A stretch of DNA of 8,971 nucleotides from a virus (lineage: Duplodnaviria; Heunggongvirae; Uroviricota; Caudoviricetes): IMG/VR virus record IMGVR_UViG_2602041905_000014, one strand, 5' to 3'. The notes under the pieces are model-generated. The model ran no database searches. It had not been told where the DNA came from and saw only the letters and a list, made by a program, of their open reading frames with translations. How positions within the stretch are numbered: position 1 is the stretch's first letter; the number at the start of each line of letters is the position of its first letter. Shown here one piece after another: positions 2,739-8,971 of this stretch. The translations under genes were made by a program, and so were the position numbers.

Positions 2739-3959
2739 GTGGGAAAAGCACTAAACAAACTGAGCGATTCAACGTTAAAAAAATTGGTGGCTGTCCAGGC
2801 AGAAAAAGAGCGTTTTTACTCCGACGGGGGCGGGCTGGAGATTAAACACTCAAAGGGCGGCAAATTAACCTGGTATTTCCGGTACCGAACGGGAGGCCGT
2901 GAGGTTGCCGCAGAGCGGTTAAAGCTGGGGGCTTACCCTGAATTGTCGCTGAAAGCCGCAAGGGAAAAACGCACACTGTGCCGGGCATGGCTGGCTGAGG
3001 GTAAAAACCCCCGTTATGAGTTGTGCGCCACAGTACAGGAAGCACTAAAACCCGTTACGGTGAAGGAAGCGATTAACTACTGGCTGGAGGAATATGCGAA
3101 GGATAACCGCAAAGATTACATAAAGCTGGTGCAGCGTATGGATAAGCACATCATTTGCCATATTGGGGCAATTCCCCTTGATAAGTGTGATACAAGGCAG
3201 TGGATCGCATGTTTTGACCGCGTACGAAAAAAAGCACCAGTAGCAGCGGGCCATGTCATGCAGACATGCAAACAGGCGCTAAAGTTTTGCCGCAGGCGGC
3301 GCTACGCGTTTAGCAACGCCCTGGACGATTTGATCGTTACTGATGTGGGTAAGAGAGCAGAAATCCGCGAGAGAGTGCACAGCAACAGCGAACTAAAAGA
3401 AATTCTACGCGCTATTGATGGTGATGTGTTCGCTCCCTATTACAGTGCGTTAATGCGCTTGTTAATTGTGTTCGGGTGCAGAACGGCAGAGATCAGACTT
3501 TCAGAGATCAAAGAATGGGATCTGAAAGAAATGTTGTGGACAGTGCCAAAAGAGCACAGCAAAACGAAGGTAACAATATTCCGACCTATTCCTGATGGTA
3601 TTTTGCCGTTCATTCAGAAGCTGGTGGAGCAAAACGCACACACTGGGTTATTACTCGGCGAACTGAAAAAAGATACCACGGTGGCGCAATATGGACGAAA
3701 TGCGCATAAGCGGCTTAAGCAGGAACACTGGACGCTGCATGATTTCCGACACACGTTTACAACTATGCTGAATGATTTAGGTGTCGATCCGCATATCGTG
3801 GAGCACATCACAGCGCATCAGATGCCAGGTCAGCAAAAAACCTATAACCATTCACGCTATTTGCAGGCGAAACGGGACGCACTGAATCTATGGGTTGAGC
3901 GTCTTGATGTGATTGCAGGATATAATGAAAATATTGTGATATTGAGAGGGATACAATGA
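2739..3959 (+). CDS. int: Tyrosine site-specific integrase (phage P4-type), 406 aa, GTG start
   Basis: N-terminal arm-binding-type region (YSDGGGLEIKHSKGGKLTWYFRYR). C-terminal catalytic signature HDFRHTF, then HxxxH and the tyrosine in TYNHSRY. GTG start with an AAGAGG Shine-Dalgarno motif 8 nt upstream. Confidence 0.9.
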   Translation: MGKALNKLSDSTLKKLVAVQAEKERFYSDGGGLEIKHSKGGKLTWYFRYRTGGREVAAERLKLGAYPELSLKAAREKRTLCRAWLAEGKNPRYELCATVQEALKPVTVKEAINYWLEEYAKDNRKDYIKLVQRMDKHIICHIGAIPLDKCDTRQWIACFDRVRKKAPVAAGHVMQTCKQALKFCRRRRYAFSNALDDLIVTDVGKRAEIRERVHSNSELKEILRAIDGDVFAPYYSALMRLLIVFGCRTAEIRLSEIKEWDLKEMLWTVPKEHSKTKVTIFRPIPDGILPFIQKLVEQNAHTGLLLGELKKDTTVAQYGRNAHKRLKQEHWTLHDFRHTFTTMLNDLGVDPHIVEHITAHQMPGQQKTYNHSRYLQAKRDALNLWVERLDVIAGYNENIVILRGIQ

Positions 3960-4810
3960 CGAAAAAAGTAAATAGTAAAAAAGATTTACCAAAGTCATTT
4001 GATTTAGGCAAATATGATTGCCTAGAAAACTTGTCGGATAAAGATCTATTTCGCCAATTATATTGGCGACAAGATGATTTAACAATGAAACATTCTGAGA
4101 TGCCTGAATATGGATTTATGTTTGGTGCTGAATACCCGTTGCATAATAATTACGGGGATCCATTTGGAGAGCTGAAAGAAGACGATTGGTTTTGTGATAA
4201 ACAAAAAGAATATGACCATAAAGTGCAACCGAAGTTAATTGAGCTAAGTTATGATGATGGAATTAAACCTGTAACAAGGTTTGATATATCAATGATTAAT
4301 AAACTGACTGCGGAAAGAGGATATTGGAAGGATAAACCAATCATCATAGATAATGAGATGGTTGGAAGTTTAATATCAGAAGATAATGGGATGTTTTGGG
4401 CTGTGATGCGTGAACCAGTGAATCTCCTTTCTGATACATTAGATAATATGCTTGTTTCTGTTGACTTACTACATAACAGAGATGATGAGTTGATTGAAGC
4501 GTTTACAAAACTATTACCAAAATGGCGTAGTGAACTTTCAATTGTTGAGCCAGACAAACCAATTGCAGGAAGTTGGGAAAGCATACGACGTAAAATTATT
4601 GATTATAAGATAATCCCATTAATTGACTTATTATCTTGGGAGTTGTCTACAGATAGAAAAATTTCATTAGGGGTGCTTGCCGTATCTTTGTACCCTGATG
4701 GTGAAAAGGACACCTTTGCTATTGCTCAGACTGTAAAACCTTTCTTAGAAAAAATAATGCGCAGCGATTCTTTAGAAAAAATAAGAAAAATGTTATCTAA
4801 TGAAAATTAA
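3956..4810 (+). CDS. Hypothetical protein, 284 aa, acidic, no recognisable motif; AT-rich gene translationally coupled to int
   Basis: Its ATG (3956-3958) overlaps the int TGA (3957-3959) as ATGA, with a GAGAGGG Shine-Dalgarno motif upstream. A long uninterrupted ORF whose base composition is visibly more AT-rich than the flanking int and alpA genes. Confidence 0.7.
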   Translation: MTKKVNSKKDLPKSFDLGKYDCLENLSDKDLFRQLYWRQDDLTMKHSEMPEYGFMFGAEYPLHNNYGDPFGELKEDDWFCDKQKEYDHKVQPKLIELSYDDGIKPVTRFDISMINKLTAERGYWKDKPIIIDNEMVGSLISEDNGMFWAVMREPVNLLSDTLDNMLVSVDLLHNRDDELIEAFTKLLPKWRSELSIVEPDKPIAGSWESIRRKIIDYKIIPLIDLLSWELSTDRKISLGVLAVSLYPDGEKDTFAIAQTVKPFLEKIMRSDSLEKIRKMLSNEN

Positions 4811-4913
4811 TCATGGAGAACGATAAATTAGAATAAAGTTTATTTTTCCAATATTGCACCAACTGCTATGGTAAATAAGATGCCCTCGTTCGGTTACGTT
4901 CGAGGGTGTTTTT

Positions 4914-5138
4914 ATGAATCAAAATACACAATTTCAATCACTAACAGATCGCGTAATTCGTGAGGATGAATGTCGTAAGTTAACAGGCGTCAGCCGTACT
5001 ACACGCTACGAACTGGAGAAGAAAGGGGGCTTTCCGTCTCGCCGTAATCTTGGGGGGCGTTCTGTAGGCTGGTTGCTTTCCGAAGTTATGGACTGGGTGC
5101 AAAGCCGTGACCGCGTTAATTCAGGTAAGGCAGCCTAG
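4914..5138 (+). CDS. alpA: AlpA-family phage transcriptional regulator (MerR-like HTH, excisionase-like), 74 aa
   Basis: The translation (LTDRVIREDECRKLTGVSRTTRYELEKKGGFPSRRNLGGRSVGWLLSEVMDWV) has the AlpA-family HTH pattern. Its size and its position near the integrase are typical of P4-like islands. Confidence 0.85.
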   Translation: MNQNTQFQSLTDRVIREDECRKLTGVSRTTRYELEKKGGFPSRRNLGGRSVGWLLSEVMDWVQSRDRVNSGKAA

Positions 5139-5354: not shown

Positions 5355-5576
5355 TCATGTTCGTTTACCGCATTTTTGCGTTGTTTTTTCTTGGATGAGG
5401 ATAATTTCTNNNNNNNNNNGACGCTGGCGGTATTCAACTTCTCGCTTTAATGCTGCTGTTACAAACTGCCCTGTACTTTCACCAGGCATTTTTACCGCCT
5501 CAACATTGTTCATAACTTCATGCGGAACCCTTGCCGCAACTGTTTGTGATTTTGCGTTTACTGCTTTTGTCGCCAT
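5355..5576 (-). CDS. Putative ribbon-helix-helix (Arc/MetJ/CopG-like) DNA-binding regulator; the 3' end is uncertain because the frame crosses the N gap
   Basis: Minus-strand ATG at 5574-5576 with an AAGGAG Shine-Dalgarno motif 8 nt upstream. The N-terminal 52 aa (MATKAVNAKSQTVAARVPHEVMNNVEAVKMPGESTGQFVTAALKREVEYRQR) fit a beta-strand plus two-helix RHH layout. It is divergent from the operator-bearing promoter region. Confidence 0.5.
   Translation of the reverse strand: MATKAVNAKSQTVAARVPHEVMNNVEAVKMPGESTGQFVTAALKREVEYRQRXXXXEIILIQEKTTQKCGKRT
5410..5419. other. Assembly gap (run of 10 N)
   Basis: Ten consecutive N characters. The true length and sequence are unknown, so every reading frame crossing it is unreliable. 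Confidence 0.99.
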
Positions 5577-5677: not shown

Positions 5678-5775
5678 CCTTGTTGATGCAAGGTGCAGAA
5701 ACGACGAAACCCGGCAGTGCGCTAACACTAACCGGGCTTCTAACCACCAACGATAGCAGAAGTATCGAGGTAGCT

Positions 5776-5979: not shown

Positions 5980-6292
5980 TATGTCAAATTACCAGTACCT
6001 GATTAATCCGCATTTTAACTGTGAGCATGATATTGCTAAAAAGGTTTATTCCGCTGCGGATGGGGCTACTGACAATATATCAATGGGTATTGCGTCAATT
6101 GGTAGCCTGATGTGGCATGCGTCAGAAAATGAGGACTATGACGAAAAGGCTATGCGCATTGATATGGGTAATATCGGTTTGTTACTGGCAATGCTTGGGC
6201 AGTTTGATATTTCGTTACGGTGCACCATTGAAAATGCCGCAGATGCATTAAATGCCATAAAGAAAGCGAATACTGATTCAAATCGGGGATAA
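5972..6292 (+). CDS. Hypothetical protein, 106 aa
   Basis: ORF whose ATG (5972) overlaps the end of the upstream small ORF, same orientation as the replication gene. No motif recognised. Confidence 0.5.
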   Translation: MPDMSNYQYLINPHFNCEHDIAKKVYSAADGATDNISMGIASIGSLMWHASENEDYDEKAMRIDMGNIGLLLAMLGQFDISLRCTIENAADALNAIKKANTDSNRG

Positions 6293-6298
6293 ATAATC

Positions 6299-6598
6299 AT
6301 GAGAACATATTTATCTGGCTTGACTGCCAGCGGTTATGCACACCCCAAAATTATCCCCGGCGCTATTTATCTGGATAAGAACGGTAACAGAGTAACGGTA
6401 AAAGAACTGATGTTTGACCGTGTGTATTTTATTCGTGATGGCTATTCATTTCATAGTTCGCTGAACGTGGAGATCTTTATTAGCAGATTCAGGCGGGAAA
6501 TCCCGCTTTCCAGAAATAATCATGTGTCATGTATGGATGTTGATAAAAAACTACAGGAACTGAAAAACATGATTGCCGCGTGGAGAGAGCAGAAATGA
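6299..6598 (+). CDS. Hypothetical small protein, 99 aa; resembles the DUF4222-type small proteins of P4-like prophages (recollection, unverified)
   Basis: ATG at 6299 is 6 nt after the previous stop. Its TGA (6596-6598) overlaps the ATG (6595-6597) of the helicase gene as ATGA. Pattern Y-D-x-x-G-x-RV-V ... DRV-F-R-GY. Confidence 0.55.
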   Translation: MRTYLSGLTASGYAHPKIIPGAIYLDKNGNRVTVKELMFDRVYFIRDGYSFHSSLNVEIFISRFRREIPLSRNNHVSCMDVDKKLQELKNMIAAWREQK

Positions 6599-8412
6599 AA
6601 AAAGCGCCAAATTTAAAACACCAGCCGCGTGACAAAATGACGGAAGTCATCATTTTTGCGGGTAGTGATGCGTGGGCACATGCGAAGCAGTGGCAGGAAC
6701 AGGACGGGCGACTGGCAGGCGATAACGTGCCACCTGTCTGGCTTGGAGAGCAACAACTTGCCGAACTGGACAACCTGCAAATCGTACCGGACGGACGCTA
6801 TCGCGTGCGTCTCTATCAGGCGGGGTTATTGCGTCCGGTGCTTGTTAATACCATCGGGCAGAAACTGGCAGCGGCAGGTGTCAGGGATGCTGATTATTAT
6901 CCTGAAGGAATGCACAGCCAGAAACGGGAGAACTGGCACGAATATCTGGAACGTGAACGGGCAGAGCTGGCGGAAAAGAAAAAGGTAGTTGAACTGCCTG
7001 TAAAGAAAAAAGAGCGGGTAAAAGACGATAACGCTTCATCACTGGCGCTTAACCAGATGGGAGCAAGTCAACGCGGCGAAGTTCTCCTGGCACATTATGG
7101 CGGTGAACTGGCGATTCATGCTGACTCTGACACTGTTCACCATTACAACGGCGTTGTATGGGAGCCAGTACAGGATAAAGAATTACAGCGAGCTATGGCA
7201 CAGATTTTCATTGATGCGGAGATCAGCTATTCGCAGAACGCCATTAAATCGGCGGTCGATACCATGAAGTTAAGTTTGCCTGTAATGGGGAATACAGCCC
7301 GTAACCTGATTGGATTCAGTAACGGGGTATTTGATACCAGAACAGGTAATTTTCGGGAGCATAACAAAAACGACTGGTTGTTAATTGCCAGTGAATTACC
7401 TTTCAGCCCACCAGCAGAGGGGGAAACGCTGGCAACACATGCGCCGAATTTCTGGAAGTGGTTACGCCGTTCGGTGGCTGAGAATGACCGCAAGGCGGAT
7501 CGCGTACTGGCTGCATTATTCATGGTGCTGGCGAACCGGTACGACTGGCAGTTATTCATTGAGGTAACAGGTCCAGGGGGAAGTGGTAAAAGCGTGATGG
7601 CGGAGATTTGCACCATGCTGGCGGGTAAGGCCAACACAGTATCGGCAAGCATGAAGGCGCTGGAAGATGCAAGGGAACGCGCGTTAGTGGTTGGCTTTTC
7701 GCTGATTATCATGCCGGATATGACCCGCTACGCTGGTGATGGGGCAGGGATTAAGGCTATTACAGGCGGTGACAAGGTGGCAATTGACCCGAAACACAAA
7801 GCCCCCTACTCAACGCGTATTCCGGCAGTAGTGCTGGCGGTTAACAATAACGCCATGTCATTCAGTGACCGCAGCGGGGGGATCTCACGTCGTCGGGTGA
7901 TATTCAATTTTTCGGAAGTTGTACCGGAGAACGAACGTGATCCAATGCTGGCCGAAAAAATAGAAGGTGAGCTGGCGGTAGTGATTCGCCATCTGCTTAC
8001 ACGGTTTGCTGACCAGGACGAAGCCAGACGCCTGTTATATGAGCAGCAGAAATCTGAAGAAGCACTGGCGATAAAGCGAGAGGGGGATTCGCTGGTGGAC
8101 TTCTGCGGCTATCTCATGGCGTCGGTAATGTGTGATGGCCTGTTAGTGGGTAATGCTGAAATTGTGCCATTCAGCCCACGCAGGTATCTCTATCATGCCT
8201 ATCTGGCTTATATGAGGGCACATGGGTTTGGTAAACCTGTAACACTGACGCGCTTCGGTAAAGATATGCCGGGGGCAATGGCGGAATATGGCAGGGAGTA
8301 TATGAAACGGAAAACGAAGCACGGTTTGCGTTCAAACGTGACACTGACGGAGGAATCAGAAGACTGGATGCCATCATGTGTATCGGTCACTAATGACGAT
8401 AGCAAAAATTAA
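6595..8412 (+). CDS. P4 alpha-like replication protein: P4-family primase C-terminal / D5-like SF3 helicase domain with a C-terminal origin-binding region, 605 aa from ATG 6595 (the track's GTG at 6580 is less likely)
   Basis: Walker A motif TGPGGSGKS inside the segment DWQLFIEVTGPGGSGKSVMAEIC, which is characteristic of P4-type primase-helicases. GGAGAGAG Shine-Dalgarno motif 5 nt before ATG 6595. Cognate-looking iterons lie immediately downstream. Confidence 0.85.
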   Translation: MKKAPNLKHQPRDKMTEVIIFAGSDAWAHAKQWQEQDGRLAGDNVPPVWLGEQQLAELDNLQIVPDGRYRVRLYQAGLLRPVLVNTIGQKLAAAGVRDADYYPEGMHSQKRENWHEYLERERAELAEKKKVVELPVKKKERVKDDNASSLALNQMGASQRGEVLLAHYGGELAIHADSDTVHHYNGVVWEPVQDKELQRAMAQIFIDAEISYSQNAIKSAVDTMKLSLPVMGNTARNLIGFSNGVFDTRTGNFREHNKNDWLLIASELPFSPPAEGETLATHAPNFWKWLRRSVAENDRKADRVLAALFMVLANRYDWQLFIEVTGPGGSGKSVMAEICTMLAGKANTVSASMKALEDARERALVVGFSLIIMPDMTRYAGDGAGIKAITGGDKVAIDPKHKAPYSTRIPAVVLAVNNNAMSFSDRSGGISRRRVIFNFSEVVPENERDPMLAEKIEGELAVVIRHLLTRFADQDEARRLLYEQQKSEEALAIKREGDSLVDFCGYLMASVMCDGLLVGNAEIVPFSPRRYLYHAYLAYMRAHGFGKPVTLTRFGKDMPGAMAEYGREYMKRKTKHGLRSNVTLTEESEDWMPSCVSVTNDDSKN

Positions 8413-8425
8413 ACTTATGGAATAA

Positions 8426-8648
8426 CTGTTCACCACTGTTCACCCCGTCATAAATGTCTTTTATATCATTATATTATAGGGTGAACAGTTATTTATGAAC
8501 TGTTCACCAAACTATTCACTGTTCACCTTTTTGATTGTTTATTGAGCTGCAAGGGTGAACAGTGGTGAACAGTTGGTGAATAGTTTTTGTGAAACTGTTC
8601 ACCCCTTAACATTATGAATTGAAAGAGAAAATAGCAAAAGGTGAACAG
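8426..8648. repeat. Iteron cluster (putative ori or crr of the P4-like replicon): about 9 perfect and 2 degenerate copies of CTGTTCACC / GGTGAACAG in both orientations
   Basis: Perfect copies at 8426-8434, 8436-8444, 8480-8488 (reverse), 8500-8508, 8519-8527, 8554-8562 (reverse), 8564-8572 (reverse), 8595-8603 and 8640-8648 (reverse). Degenerate copies at 8511-8519 and 8575-8583. The TGTTCACC octamer is the type I iteron bound by P4 alpha. Confidence 0.85.
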
Positions 8649-8971
8649 GTGAAGGGTTAAAATACAAAAATTTTATTACAGCATGGAATATTAAGTTTTA
8701 GCCGACAGGTAGTTAGCCATAAGAGGATATTTGTCGCTTAGTATTACGTACATAACAGCAAACACTTTTCTGGTTTGCTGGATTAATAGATAAGCGCTAT
8801 AAGTTAGTTAGTTTTGAAAAATTTATTGAATAACTCTAAGCTTTCAGGATGTATATATTGAGTAGGGTAACTGATACGTTGTGAGCGTCCAATTTTTATT
8901 GTGTTCTTTTTCGTCTTCCCAAAAAATAGATTCTTCCATGTTAAAATGTTTCCGTGATTATATTTATTGTC

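Follow-up and report, generated by a model that had tools for sequence, protein, structure and literature searches.

AlpA-type islands (PICIs, cfPICIs, PICMIs and ROD21-like elements) spread virulence, resistance and defence genes in Enterobacterales; one of them, ICEKp258.2, is a ROD21-like island of K. pneumoniae ST258. In the PICMIs of Vibrio, int and alpA flank a co-directional "int-overlapping gene" (iolg; Barcia-Cruz et al. 2024, PMC10803314). Its start overlaps the int stop by 1, 4 or 13 nt, most frequently as ATGA, and the class comprises 13 unrelated families with undescribed functions, the gene being missing in 3 of 35 subfamilies (PMC10803314). Expression of int and iolg is constitutive in these satellites and that of alpA is induced by phage, through a helper route that was stated to be unexplained (PMC10803314). 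In PICMI115, helper-induced excision was reported to require the gene that overlaps int by 4 nt. The genetics are ambiguous: complementation of delta-iolg was obtained only with int/iolg, delta-int was rescued by int alone, and the authors' own wording is "probably IOLG" (PMC10803314). ROD21-like (EARL) islands carry an "843-bp gene" beside an AlpA-type RDF, as in ICEKp258.2, where ORF28 (KPNJ2_RS09320, DUF6387) lies upstream of ORF27 (AlpA) and int sits at the far end of the island (PMC6035254, PMC10763509).

The window analyzed here (8,971 nt in full) is an E. coli PICI-like satellite between rcnR and thiM; of the two kinds of element named in an earlier note, it resembles the PICIs and not P4. 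Its first gene is annotated as an integrase in identical E. coli genomes, and the gene that follows obeys the positional rule of iolg, with ATGA at 3956–3959 and alpA from 4914, a likeness of arrangement. The two also share a polymorphic slot, occupied by unrelated families and sometimes by none. PICMIs differ in being about 6 kb long, in lying beside fis, in having virulent helpers and in belonging to another host order, and the excision requirement is known for PICMI115 alone, with incomplete complementation. The features discussed below, all on the plus strand, are as follows.

2739–3959, plus strand: tyrosine integrase gene (int), 406 aa, first gene of the island and adjoining rcnR (Arm-DNA-bind_3 and Phage_integrase, Pfam)
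3941–4883, plus strand: slot cassette, made up of the last 5 or so codons of int, the whole ORF and a 3′ spacer of about 70 nt (breaks in nucleotide identity)
3944–3959, plus strand: coupling junction, with SD-like GAGAGGG at 3944–3950 and ATGA at 3956–3959 placing the ORF start on the int stop
3956–4810, plus strand: DUF6387-family ORF, 284 aa (Pfam PF19924, E=4.6e-31; AF2 mean pLDDT 87.6)
3956–4075, plus strand: conserved N-terminal motif, residues 1–40 (column conservation in alignments A1 and A2)
4076–4450, plus strand: hypervariable middle, residues about 41–165, with indels across the family (column conservation in A2)
4451–4807, plus strand: conserved C-terminal domain, residues about 166–284 (LLPxWR and IPxIDLxxW motifs, invariant D224)
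4882–4913, plus strand: terminator-like hairpin abutting the alpA ATG (GCCCTCG-N12-CGAGGGT, then GTTTTT)
4914–5138, plus strand: alpA, a regulator/RDF-type gene, 74 aa (Phage_AlpA, Pfam E=4.8e-16)

The ORF is a genuine conserved protein gene. It spans 855 bp, starts with ATG and ends 103 nt before alpA; the chance of 284 stop-free codons at its composition is ~1e-11, and the longest ORF recovered from 2000 shuffles ran to 186 codons. Its predicted product is acidic (pI 4.97), soluble and mostly helical, as judged from physico-chemical values and the AF2 model, and the strong conservation and confident fold of this protein rule out that the segment is non-coding or a mere H-NS target. The overlap with the int stop and the SD-like run ahead of it bear out the translational arrangement read from the sequence in the earlier note, and no sigma-70-like promoter was seen between int and the ORF. 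The marked AT-richness reported there was likewise confirmed (GC 0.336 against 0.481 for int and 0.489 for alpA; GC3 0.27 against 0.52 and 0.43). The view that this composition betrays a separately acquired insert held in part: the segment does behave as a swapped cassette (about 3941–4883), whereas a low GC content characterizes the entire family and other slot genes too. DUF6387 genes are low in GC in all hosts examined, mostly by 10–19 points relative to the flanking int and alpA and by about 7–16 points in Providencia and Neptunomonas, and unrelated occupants of the int–alpA slot are also AT-rich (GC 0.32–0.39).

The protein, at first sight unrecognizable, proved to have a catalogued family: it is a full-length match to PF19924 (DUF6387; 108.8 bits against a cut-off of 28.9; residues 3–272 on positions 2–252 of the 258-position profile), it is listed in RefSeq under the name "DUF6387 family protein" (WP_000163378.1), and all 65 aligned relatives match the same profile. 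It has no characterized homologue. The family holds at least 1262 clusters at 50% identity, 417 of them at E<=1e-10, and the top 150 representatives mostly span 225–325 aa; like them, the 284-aa product stands alone with no added domain, and a Pfam scan of longer members and of the 65 aligned members returned neither a fused domain nor a recurrent weak match. Conservation is concentrated at the two ends (N-terminal consensus DLPxWFxLxNYxxLxxLxDxxLxxQLxxR), where the majority-residue fraction in A2 is 0.36–0.54 in most of the conserved blocks compared to 0.13–0.27 in the middle. The C-terminal domain bears a weak likeness to an HTH/winged-helix-like fold. No literature was found on WP_000163378 or PF19924, the term "DUF6387" occurred in two papers, in gene tables only, and the supplements of PMC10803314, which give locus tags only, do not mention it.

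Further searches agreed with the earlier observations that the gene has an undescribed function and that the product lacks a Walker, nuclease, HTH or transmembrane signature, none of these families being found by Pfam search. No PADLOC-DB v2 family matched the product at E<=10, and the same was true of a second DUF6387 allele, one paralogue and the alternative slot genes. NCBIfam gave no match, and the PDB yielded nothing meaningful to sequence searches that used either the protein itself or the family profile. No solved structure was matched by fold, and Foldseek found nothing among the BFVD viral structures. The single match in PHROGs was a family of unknown function (residues 161–252), and a word-indexed search with a broad DUF6387 profile added no further distant members. 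We also considered whether the ORF might itself encode an RDF; this was rejected, since its 284 aa and pI of 4.97 contrast with the small (usually <120 aa), basic winged-helix proteins of that type, the 74-aa AlpA fills the role, and no Pfam match to the HTH_17, Phage_AlpA or Excisionase-like models was obtained at E<=1. No confident match to a housekeeping or integrase-accessory family emerged.

The int–ORF–alpA arrangement had been read as a single accessory gene wedged into an island; it turned out to be a module that recurs and is deeply conserved. The order int, ATGA, DUF6387, hairpin, alpA is seen again in other Enterobacterales and further out. Almost every int–DUF6387 locus has the 4-nt overlap, which is retained in dozens of loci (Escherichia, Enterobacter, Serratia, Citrobacter, Klebsiella, Yersinia, Morganella, Providencia and Tenebrionibacter). 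Since the overlap with int persists with unrelated slot genes, co-production with Int appears to be selected. Linkage to the AlpA-type gene extends to loci of other layouts: Neptunomonas has int, 94 nt, DUF6387 and an HTH_17 gene in that order, and in Haemophilus and Avibacterium DUF6387 precedes AlpA with int ~5 kb off. In all, at least four kinds of integrative element have the gene directly 5′ of one of AlpA type. The SEN1999-like EARL companion gene is comparable in size (843–864 bp against 855 bp here), is directly upstream of and co-oriented with an AlpA-family gene, and belongs to an island with a P4-type integrase; ICEKp258.2 ORF28 is DUF6387 by published annotation, a link made through annotation rather than alignment, and ROD21-like islands are conjugative or mobilizable elements, not phage satellites. 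In the E. coli K-12 element CP4-57, the slot between intA and alpA is filled by yfjH, which is uncharacterized, but this gene is on the opposite strand and unrelated to DUF6387. The idea that YfjH is a Kiwa-like defence protein was discarded, as the protein had no Pfam or PADLOC match.

As anticipated in the earlier note, the position is variable among related islands, which carry DUF6387 alleles, an unrelated family or nothing there. Nucleotide identity to islands with other slot genes breaks at 3940–3946 and returns at 4877–4884. Beside near-identical integrases (97% to the present one), the slot holds the present allele, a DUF6387 allele that is 36% identical to it, or a family of 239–264 aa that is not related, and homology of the latter to DUF6387 was rejected by profile–profile comparison (probability 0.3%) and by BLASTP. 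Specific contact with Int is therefore unlikely. Divergence is also incongruent along the module: loci L002 and L013 share 86% identity in Int and 80% in AlpA but 43% in DUF6387, and L002 and L048 share 93% in AlpA but 45% in DUF6387; obligate Int–DUF6387 co-evolution was rejected on these incongruent identities and on the swapping of slot genes beside near-identical integrases. The slot is empty in the closest other integrase loci (66–69% identity) and in the cspD-site E. coli PICIs, which share the Icd/DUF4222/primase module; the gene is therefore dispensable for such elements in general.

Between the ORF and alpA, the predicted alpA ribosome-binding site is buried in the conserved terminator-like hairpin, whose 3′ arm includes an SD-like GAGG. 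The RNA fold is stable relative to expectation (z=-3.4), RNAalifold recovered 12 pairs with compensatory changes in 5, and no Rfam family exists for this alpA-leader element. In the integrase-sampled set, the hairpin was present in 10/10 filled-slot loci compared to 0/70 empty-slot loci. This confinement to filled slots, together with the covariation, fits an int–ORF transcription unit that is insulated from alpA.

We tentatively favor the reading, to which we assign somewhat less than an even chance, that the DUF6387 ORF is an iolg-class, int-co-translated, non-enzymatic accessory of the int/AlpA recombination switch. Under this model, the protein would be made constitutively with Int from the int transcript in the quiescent satellite, and that transcript would be terminated ahead of alpA. 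Once AlpA is induced, the protein would join or license the excision (or integration) nucleoprotein complex, with the weakly HTH-like C-terminal domain as the putative acting part and the variable middle possibly touching a changeable partner. The ATGA coupling, the linkage to alpA in loci that lack coupling to int, the covarying hairpin confined to filled slots and, by analogy, the PICMI115 precedent point in this direction. Against it, hypervariability and a low GC3 are more in keeping with conflict genes than with recombination cofactors, and the swapped slot genes, incongruent identities, empty slots and ambiguous PICMI genetics also speak against such a role.

The main rival, which we regard as unlikely though a serious contender, is that the gene is a stand-alone anti-phage or anti-element exclusion cargo in a 5′ accessory slot, expressed off the int transcript, with a variable middle that recognizes a phage protein and conserved ends that serve as effector or scaffold. 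The architecture of conserved ends flanking a hypervariable center suits this proposal, as do the polymorphism of the slot on near-identical backbones with sharp recombination edges, the deep DUF6387 allelic classes shuffled relative to int and alpA, the tandem paralogues seen in Providencia (locus L003) and at locus L069, and a very low GC3 (0.27) of the kind found in other slot occupants. Distant members also reside in prophage-like regulatory or accessory regions without a nearby int or AlpA, one of them adjoining a RelE-like gene, and the 5′ or 3′ end of PICIs is stated to be where they carry immune systems (Fillol-Salom et al. 2022, cited by PMC11364771). Nonetheless, no tested immune gene is a known DUF6387 member, PADLOC is without a match for this ORF or any slot occupant, and the product showed no feature of an enzymatic or membrane effector. 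Recognizable defence genes instead occupy the other hotspot of the satellite, 3′ of the primase gene (a HEPN gene here, an AbiJ-like gene in a Klebsiella relative). DUF6387 is, moreover, nearly always bound to the int/alpA module rather than strewn through defence islands, and the gene has been treated in published work as a conserved EARL backbone marker. The earlier suggestion of a defence, anti-defence or abortive-infection function thus gained nothing specific, and the one experimental precedent for an int-overlapping gene at this position, PICMI iolg, points to excision rather than defence (PMC10803314).

A broader proposal, which we consider doubtful, is that DUF6387 and the unrelated slot proteins are the specificity determinants of Gram-negative AlpA-type islands: constitutive sensors of a previously unseen fold whose hypervariable middle would sense a helper-phage protein or other cue and whose HTH-like end would license alpA or the excision complex, as a counterpart of SaPI Stl. 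Stl is of similar size, is encoded beside int and to that side of the regulatory switch, and diverges extremely among otherwise similar islands, as DUF6387 does. It differs, however, in showing neither sequence nor clear fold kinship to DUF6387, which is without an N-terminal XRE-type HTH, and in being divergent from, rather than co-directional with, the downstream regulator; empty-slot relatives further imply that DUF6387 is not a universal master regulator. The narrower version, in which a constitutive protein sits on the alpA control region through its HTH-like domain and permits alpA expression when a signal or helper phage is sensed at the variable middle (a positive-acting functional analogue of the Stl specificity determinant), seems to us slightly less probable again. 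The gene is encoded directly 5′ of the alpA leader in every lineage, the swapped cassette takes along about 70 nt of the alpA upstream control region, a variable middle with an HTH-like conserved C-terminus suits a sensor/DNA-binding layout, the loss of excision in delta-iolg is compatible with an activator, and helper switching of alpA is the very step stated as unexplained (PMC10803314). However, going by the literature summarized in PMC11773190 and the empty slots observed here, empty-slot PICIs are helper-inducible through alpA with no such gene. DUF6387 does not co-vary with AlpA (L002 and L048, above), a helper phage is lacking for EARL islands, and the protein is acidic with only putative DNA binding.

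Least probable, and very unlikely, is an establishment or anti-defence factor made with Int on entry and shielding satellite DNA from host restriction or other defences until it is integrated: co-translation with Int would give expression exactly at integration, the protein is acidic (pI 5.0), and rapid evolution with allele swapping is typical of counter-defence genes, but the acidity is not strong, the protein shows no likeness to known anti-restriction families such as ArdA, Ocr and Klc, and many related satellites are without the gene.

The ATGA coupling, exact cassette edges, filled-slot hairpin and conserved ends around a variable center define an experimental target. The cue that times excision of AlpA-type islands is a gap on which this large, int/alpA-tied family bears. 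If DUF6387 is a defence gene, it would represent a new single-gene immunity family; if, as we tentatively favor, it is a cofactor of excision or induction, it would explain both the PICMI iolg result and the companion gene of EARL islands.

The 284-aa ORF between the integrase gene (int) and alpA, which an earlier note had called unrecognisable, matches Pfam family DUF6387 (PF19924) end to end (108.8 bits against a cut-off of 28.9, E = 4.6e-31), and an identical protein stands in RefSeq as "DUF6387 family protein" (WP_000163378.1). The reading frame proposed in that note was confirmed, as was its overlap with the int stop codon, with which its ATG forms ATGA; a GAGAGGG run lies 5 nt upstream. 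At the base composition of the ORF, a 284-codon open frame has a chance of ~1e-11, and ORFs in 2000 shuffles reached 186 codons at most.

2739–3959 (+), tyrosine integrase gene (int), first gene of the island
3956–4810 (+), DUF6387 ORF, 284 aa, ATG at 3956, stop at 4808–4810
4882–4913, terminator-like hairpin, GCCCTCG-N12-CGAGGGT then GTTTTT, directly before the alpA ATG (4914)

Searches of NCBIfam and PADLOC with the protein returned no match, and its sole PHROGs match (residues 161–252) was to a family of unknown function. A word-indexed search found 57 relatives, all of those with an organism name belonging to Enterobacterales, while an exhaustive profile search, clustered at 50% identity, recovered 1262 clusters with E ≤ 1e-3, of which 417 had E ≤ 1e-10. 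Stand-alone proteins of 225–325 aa make up most of the 150 top-ranked members, and a search for fused domains among DUF6387 members found none. Conservation is concentrated in the N-terminal ~40 residues (consensus DLPxWFxLxNYxxLxxLxDxxLxxQLxxR) and the last ~120 residues (LLPxWR, IPxIDLxxW and QTIxPF, with D224 invariant), which flank a hypervariable, indel-rich middle (residues ~41–165). Soluble and acidic (pI 5.0, GRAVY −0.51), the protein has no catalytic-looking motif; its AlphaFold2 model is confident and mostly helical (pLDDT 87.6, pTM 0.69).

The ORF is AT-rich, as first noted (GC 0.336 vs 0.481 for int and 0.489 for alpA), most sharply at third codon positions (0.27 vs 0.52 and 0.43), but this composition does not mark a recent insertion into this island, since low GC is common to every occupant of the int–alpA interval (the slot) and to DUF6387 in all hosts examined. 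An antisense sigma-70-like promoter lies inside the ORF (4057–4085, − strand; TTGTTA-17-TATAAT, 10/12 match); intragenic promoters of this type are frequent where DNA is AT-rich and bound by H-NS.

The window is a piece of E. coli chromosome that takes in the 3′ end of yehA, then rcnB, rcnA and rcnR, and enters an inserted island. In identical genomes this island occupies ~10 kb of the rcnR–thiM interval, in the order int, DUF6387, alpA, YlcI/YnfO (minus strand), Icd-like, hypothetical, DUF4222, D5-type primase, HEPN gene (minus strand), ClpP-protease/major-capsid fusion and DUF1441, a layout that is that of a PICI-like phage satellite; related copies occur on 10–18-kb viral contigs in IMG/VR. 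At a masked run of ten Ns (5410–5419), identical genomes are ~89 bases longer than the window, so window coordinates downstream of it are offset relative to L001, an E. coli genome locus extending past the window. A weak hit to the SymR antitoxin RNA, below the Rfam gathering score (33.6 bits against 61, E = 0.002), lies at 5703–5775 (− strand) in the interval from alpA to the Icd-like gene, a region in which P4-like elements and PICIs reportedly encode immunity RNAs. Beyond the window (L001 21560–24500), the 637-aa ClpP-like prohead protease/major capsid fusion and DUF1441 gene are carried by this satellite, which has neither portal nor terminase; the pair recurs in Klebsiella satellites with different replication modules (L072 and L073, the latter two such satellites in tandem).

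Slot content proved polymorphic among close relatives. This integrase is present in 76 of 5426 complete E. coli genomes. In 50 of the 76 (integrase at ≥95% nt identity) the slot holds this DUF6387 allele at ≥99.3% identity, and in the other 26 (~93% nt, 96–97% aa) an unrelated ORF that likewise overlaps the int stop. Four distinct examples of the latter (three E. coli genomes and one IMG/VR contig) encode 239–264 aa with conserved ends and a mosaic variable middle; Pfam, PADLOC and PHROGs gave this family no identity, and it is not homologous to DUF6387 by BLASTP or hhalign (probability 0.3%).

L010 12217–12996, L011 12218–13012, L012 12218–12991, L087 2647–3366 and L090 1221–1994 (comparison loci): alternative slot family, 239–264 aa, unannotated

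These genes adjoin 96–97%-identical integrases (67% in L090), are AT-rich (GC 0.32–0.39) and overlap the int stop; their N-terminus looks HTH-like (YTLPxAAKKLGCTVxDILH). L010 and L012 are the same in the C-terminal third and differ in the N-terminal and central parts, and a perfect palindrome, TGATATCAC-N11-GTGATATCA, lies 3′ of the stop codon.

Furthermore, in one IMG/VR satellite, whose integrase is 97% identical, the slot holds a 331-aa DUF6387 protein at only 36% identity (n = 1). In 80 loci sampled by integrase rather than by DUF6387, the slot held DUF6387 in 8 and the alternative family in 2, and was empty in 70, which have 66–69%-identical integrases and an int–alpA gap of only 200–420 nt; it is also empty in the common cspD-site E. 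coli PICIs, which share the Icd/DUF4222/primase module. Identities between L002 and L013 are incongruent (Int 86%, AlpA 80%, DUF6387 43%), and the exchanged segment is sharp-ended: similarity to islands that carry a different gene in the slot ends at 3940–3946, about five codons before the int stop, and resumes at 4877–4884.

All Enterobacterales loci recovered via DUF6387 share one arrangement on one strand, namely int (~406–436 aa), a 4-nt overlap, DUF6387, 55–130 nt and alpA, in Enterobacter, Serratia, Citrobacter, Klebsiella, Yersinia, Morganella, Tenebrionibacter and Providencia, with varying downstream replication and capsid modules. Two loci carry tandem paralogues ahead of alpA.

L003 8001–8861 and 8866–9672: divergent tandem DUF6387 pair, ~32% identity, Providencia element
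L069 2015–2983 and 3136–4131: divergent tandem DUF6387 pair between int and alpA, metagenomic element

The linkage to alpA is kept without int coupling: Neptunomonas has int, 94 nt, DUF6387 and HTH_17, and Haemophilus and Avibacterium have DUF6387 then AlpA (followed by Rha and Ash in Haemophilus L008), with int ~5 kb off. A few distant members have a prophage-like regulatory region around them, and both int and alpA are absent from their vicinity. A distant DUF6387 gene in L077 (5001–5900) sits at the edge of a degraded island, followed by a 47-aa, small-toxin-like ORF with a hydrophobic tail (6186–6329) and an integrase remnant.

The hairpin directly before alpA holds an SD-like GAGG in its 3′ arm and buries it. 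Its fold is more stable than shuffles (z = −3.4), and it is conserved from E. coli to Neptunomonas with compensatory changes in 5/12 pairs (window, L002–L053, L010–L012 and L086–L090); Rfam holds no matching family. In the integrase-sampled set it occurs in 10/10 filled slots, irrespective of the occupant family, vs 0/70 empty ones, and the 45 nt preceding alpA have a median MFE of −18.3 vs −1.7 kcal/mol. We propose that it would terminate and insulate a transcription unit made up of int and the slot gene, and would thereby block alpA expression by read-through. A −10-like AAGAAT/TAGAAT box lies 1–2 nt upstream of the stem, and some lineages (Providencia, L052, L053, Neptunomonas) lack the U-run and keep no more than a hairpin that sequesters the RBS.

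On these grounds we infer, tentatively, that the protein may be an int-co-translated, non-enzymatic accessory of the int/AlpA switch, a reading we place ahead of the others. It is suggested by the ATGA coupling to int, kept whatever the occupant, by the persistence of DUF6387 with alpA across element types, by its treatment as backbone in ROD21-like (EARL) islands, and by a genetic precedent in Vibrio satellites (PICMIs). [quoted passage not shown] PICMIs share the architecture and polymorphism of this satellite: their int-overlapping gene (iolg) overlaps int by 4 nt before alpA in 21/35 subfamilies, falls into 13 unrelated families, none with a known function, and is absent from three subfamilies (PMC10803314). 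In PICMI115, expression is constitutive for int and iolg and phage-induced for alpA; iolg deletion abolishes excision, and since this mutant was complemented with int plus iolg and int by itself rescued delta-int, the authors' wording is "probably IOLG" (PMC10803314). Different genes share the position elsewhere: EcCIMP1 has another small ORF, without phenotype in a single assay (UV rescue of a uvrB mutant), and CP4-57 of E. coli K-12, the archetypal AlpA element, has yfjH (318 aa, opposite strand; L159 4645–5601), unrelated to DUF6387, uncharacterised and without Pfam or PADLOC match.

Against this reading stand patchiness among close relatives, shuffled alleles, tandem copies, a variable centre and very low GC3, all traits to be expected in a conflict gene, whether defence or specificity sensor. 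PICIs are said to bear immune systems at their 5′ or 3′ ends (PMC11364771). A search for direct evidence of defence found none, and recognisable defence genes occupy another hotspot (HEPN here, AbiJ-like in a relative); we place stand-alone defence or exclusion cargo second, as somewhat less likely than the accessory reading. A sensor licensing alpA, to which the same variability could point, seems improbable, and an establishment or anti-defence factor comes last, as a slight prospect. Protein anatomy, membership of DUF6387, synteny, the limits of the cassette and the hairpin are what the analysis shows directly; every functional step is inferred.

The real defence hotspot of the satellite seems to be that other position, which lies 3′ of the primase gene and on the opposite strand. 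It is occupied by a HEPN-domain gene in this island and by AbiJ-like (Abi_C) or unknown genes in Klebsiella relatives, and the AT-rich tail of the window (8400–8971, GC ~0.32) runs into it.

8893–8971, continuing into L001 20494–21207 (−): post-primase variable position
L073 3655–4419 and L072 10151–10864: the same position in Klebsiella relatives

DUF6387 was already catalogued, and both the int-overlapping positional class and the EARL "companion gene" had been described; the ORF is one more instance of this described, uncharacterised type. To this, our analysis adds the domain layout of the DUF6387 protein, the exact boundaries of the exchanged cassette, a hairpin dependent on a filled slot and, by position and annotation, a putative link through DUF6387 between the iolg and EARL companion-gene literatures.
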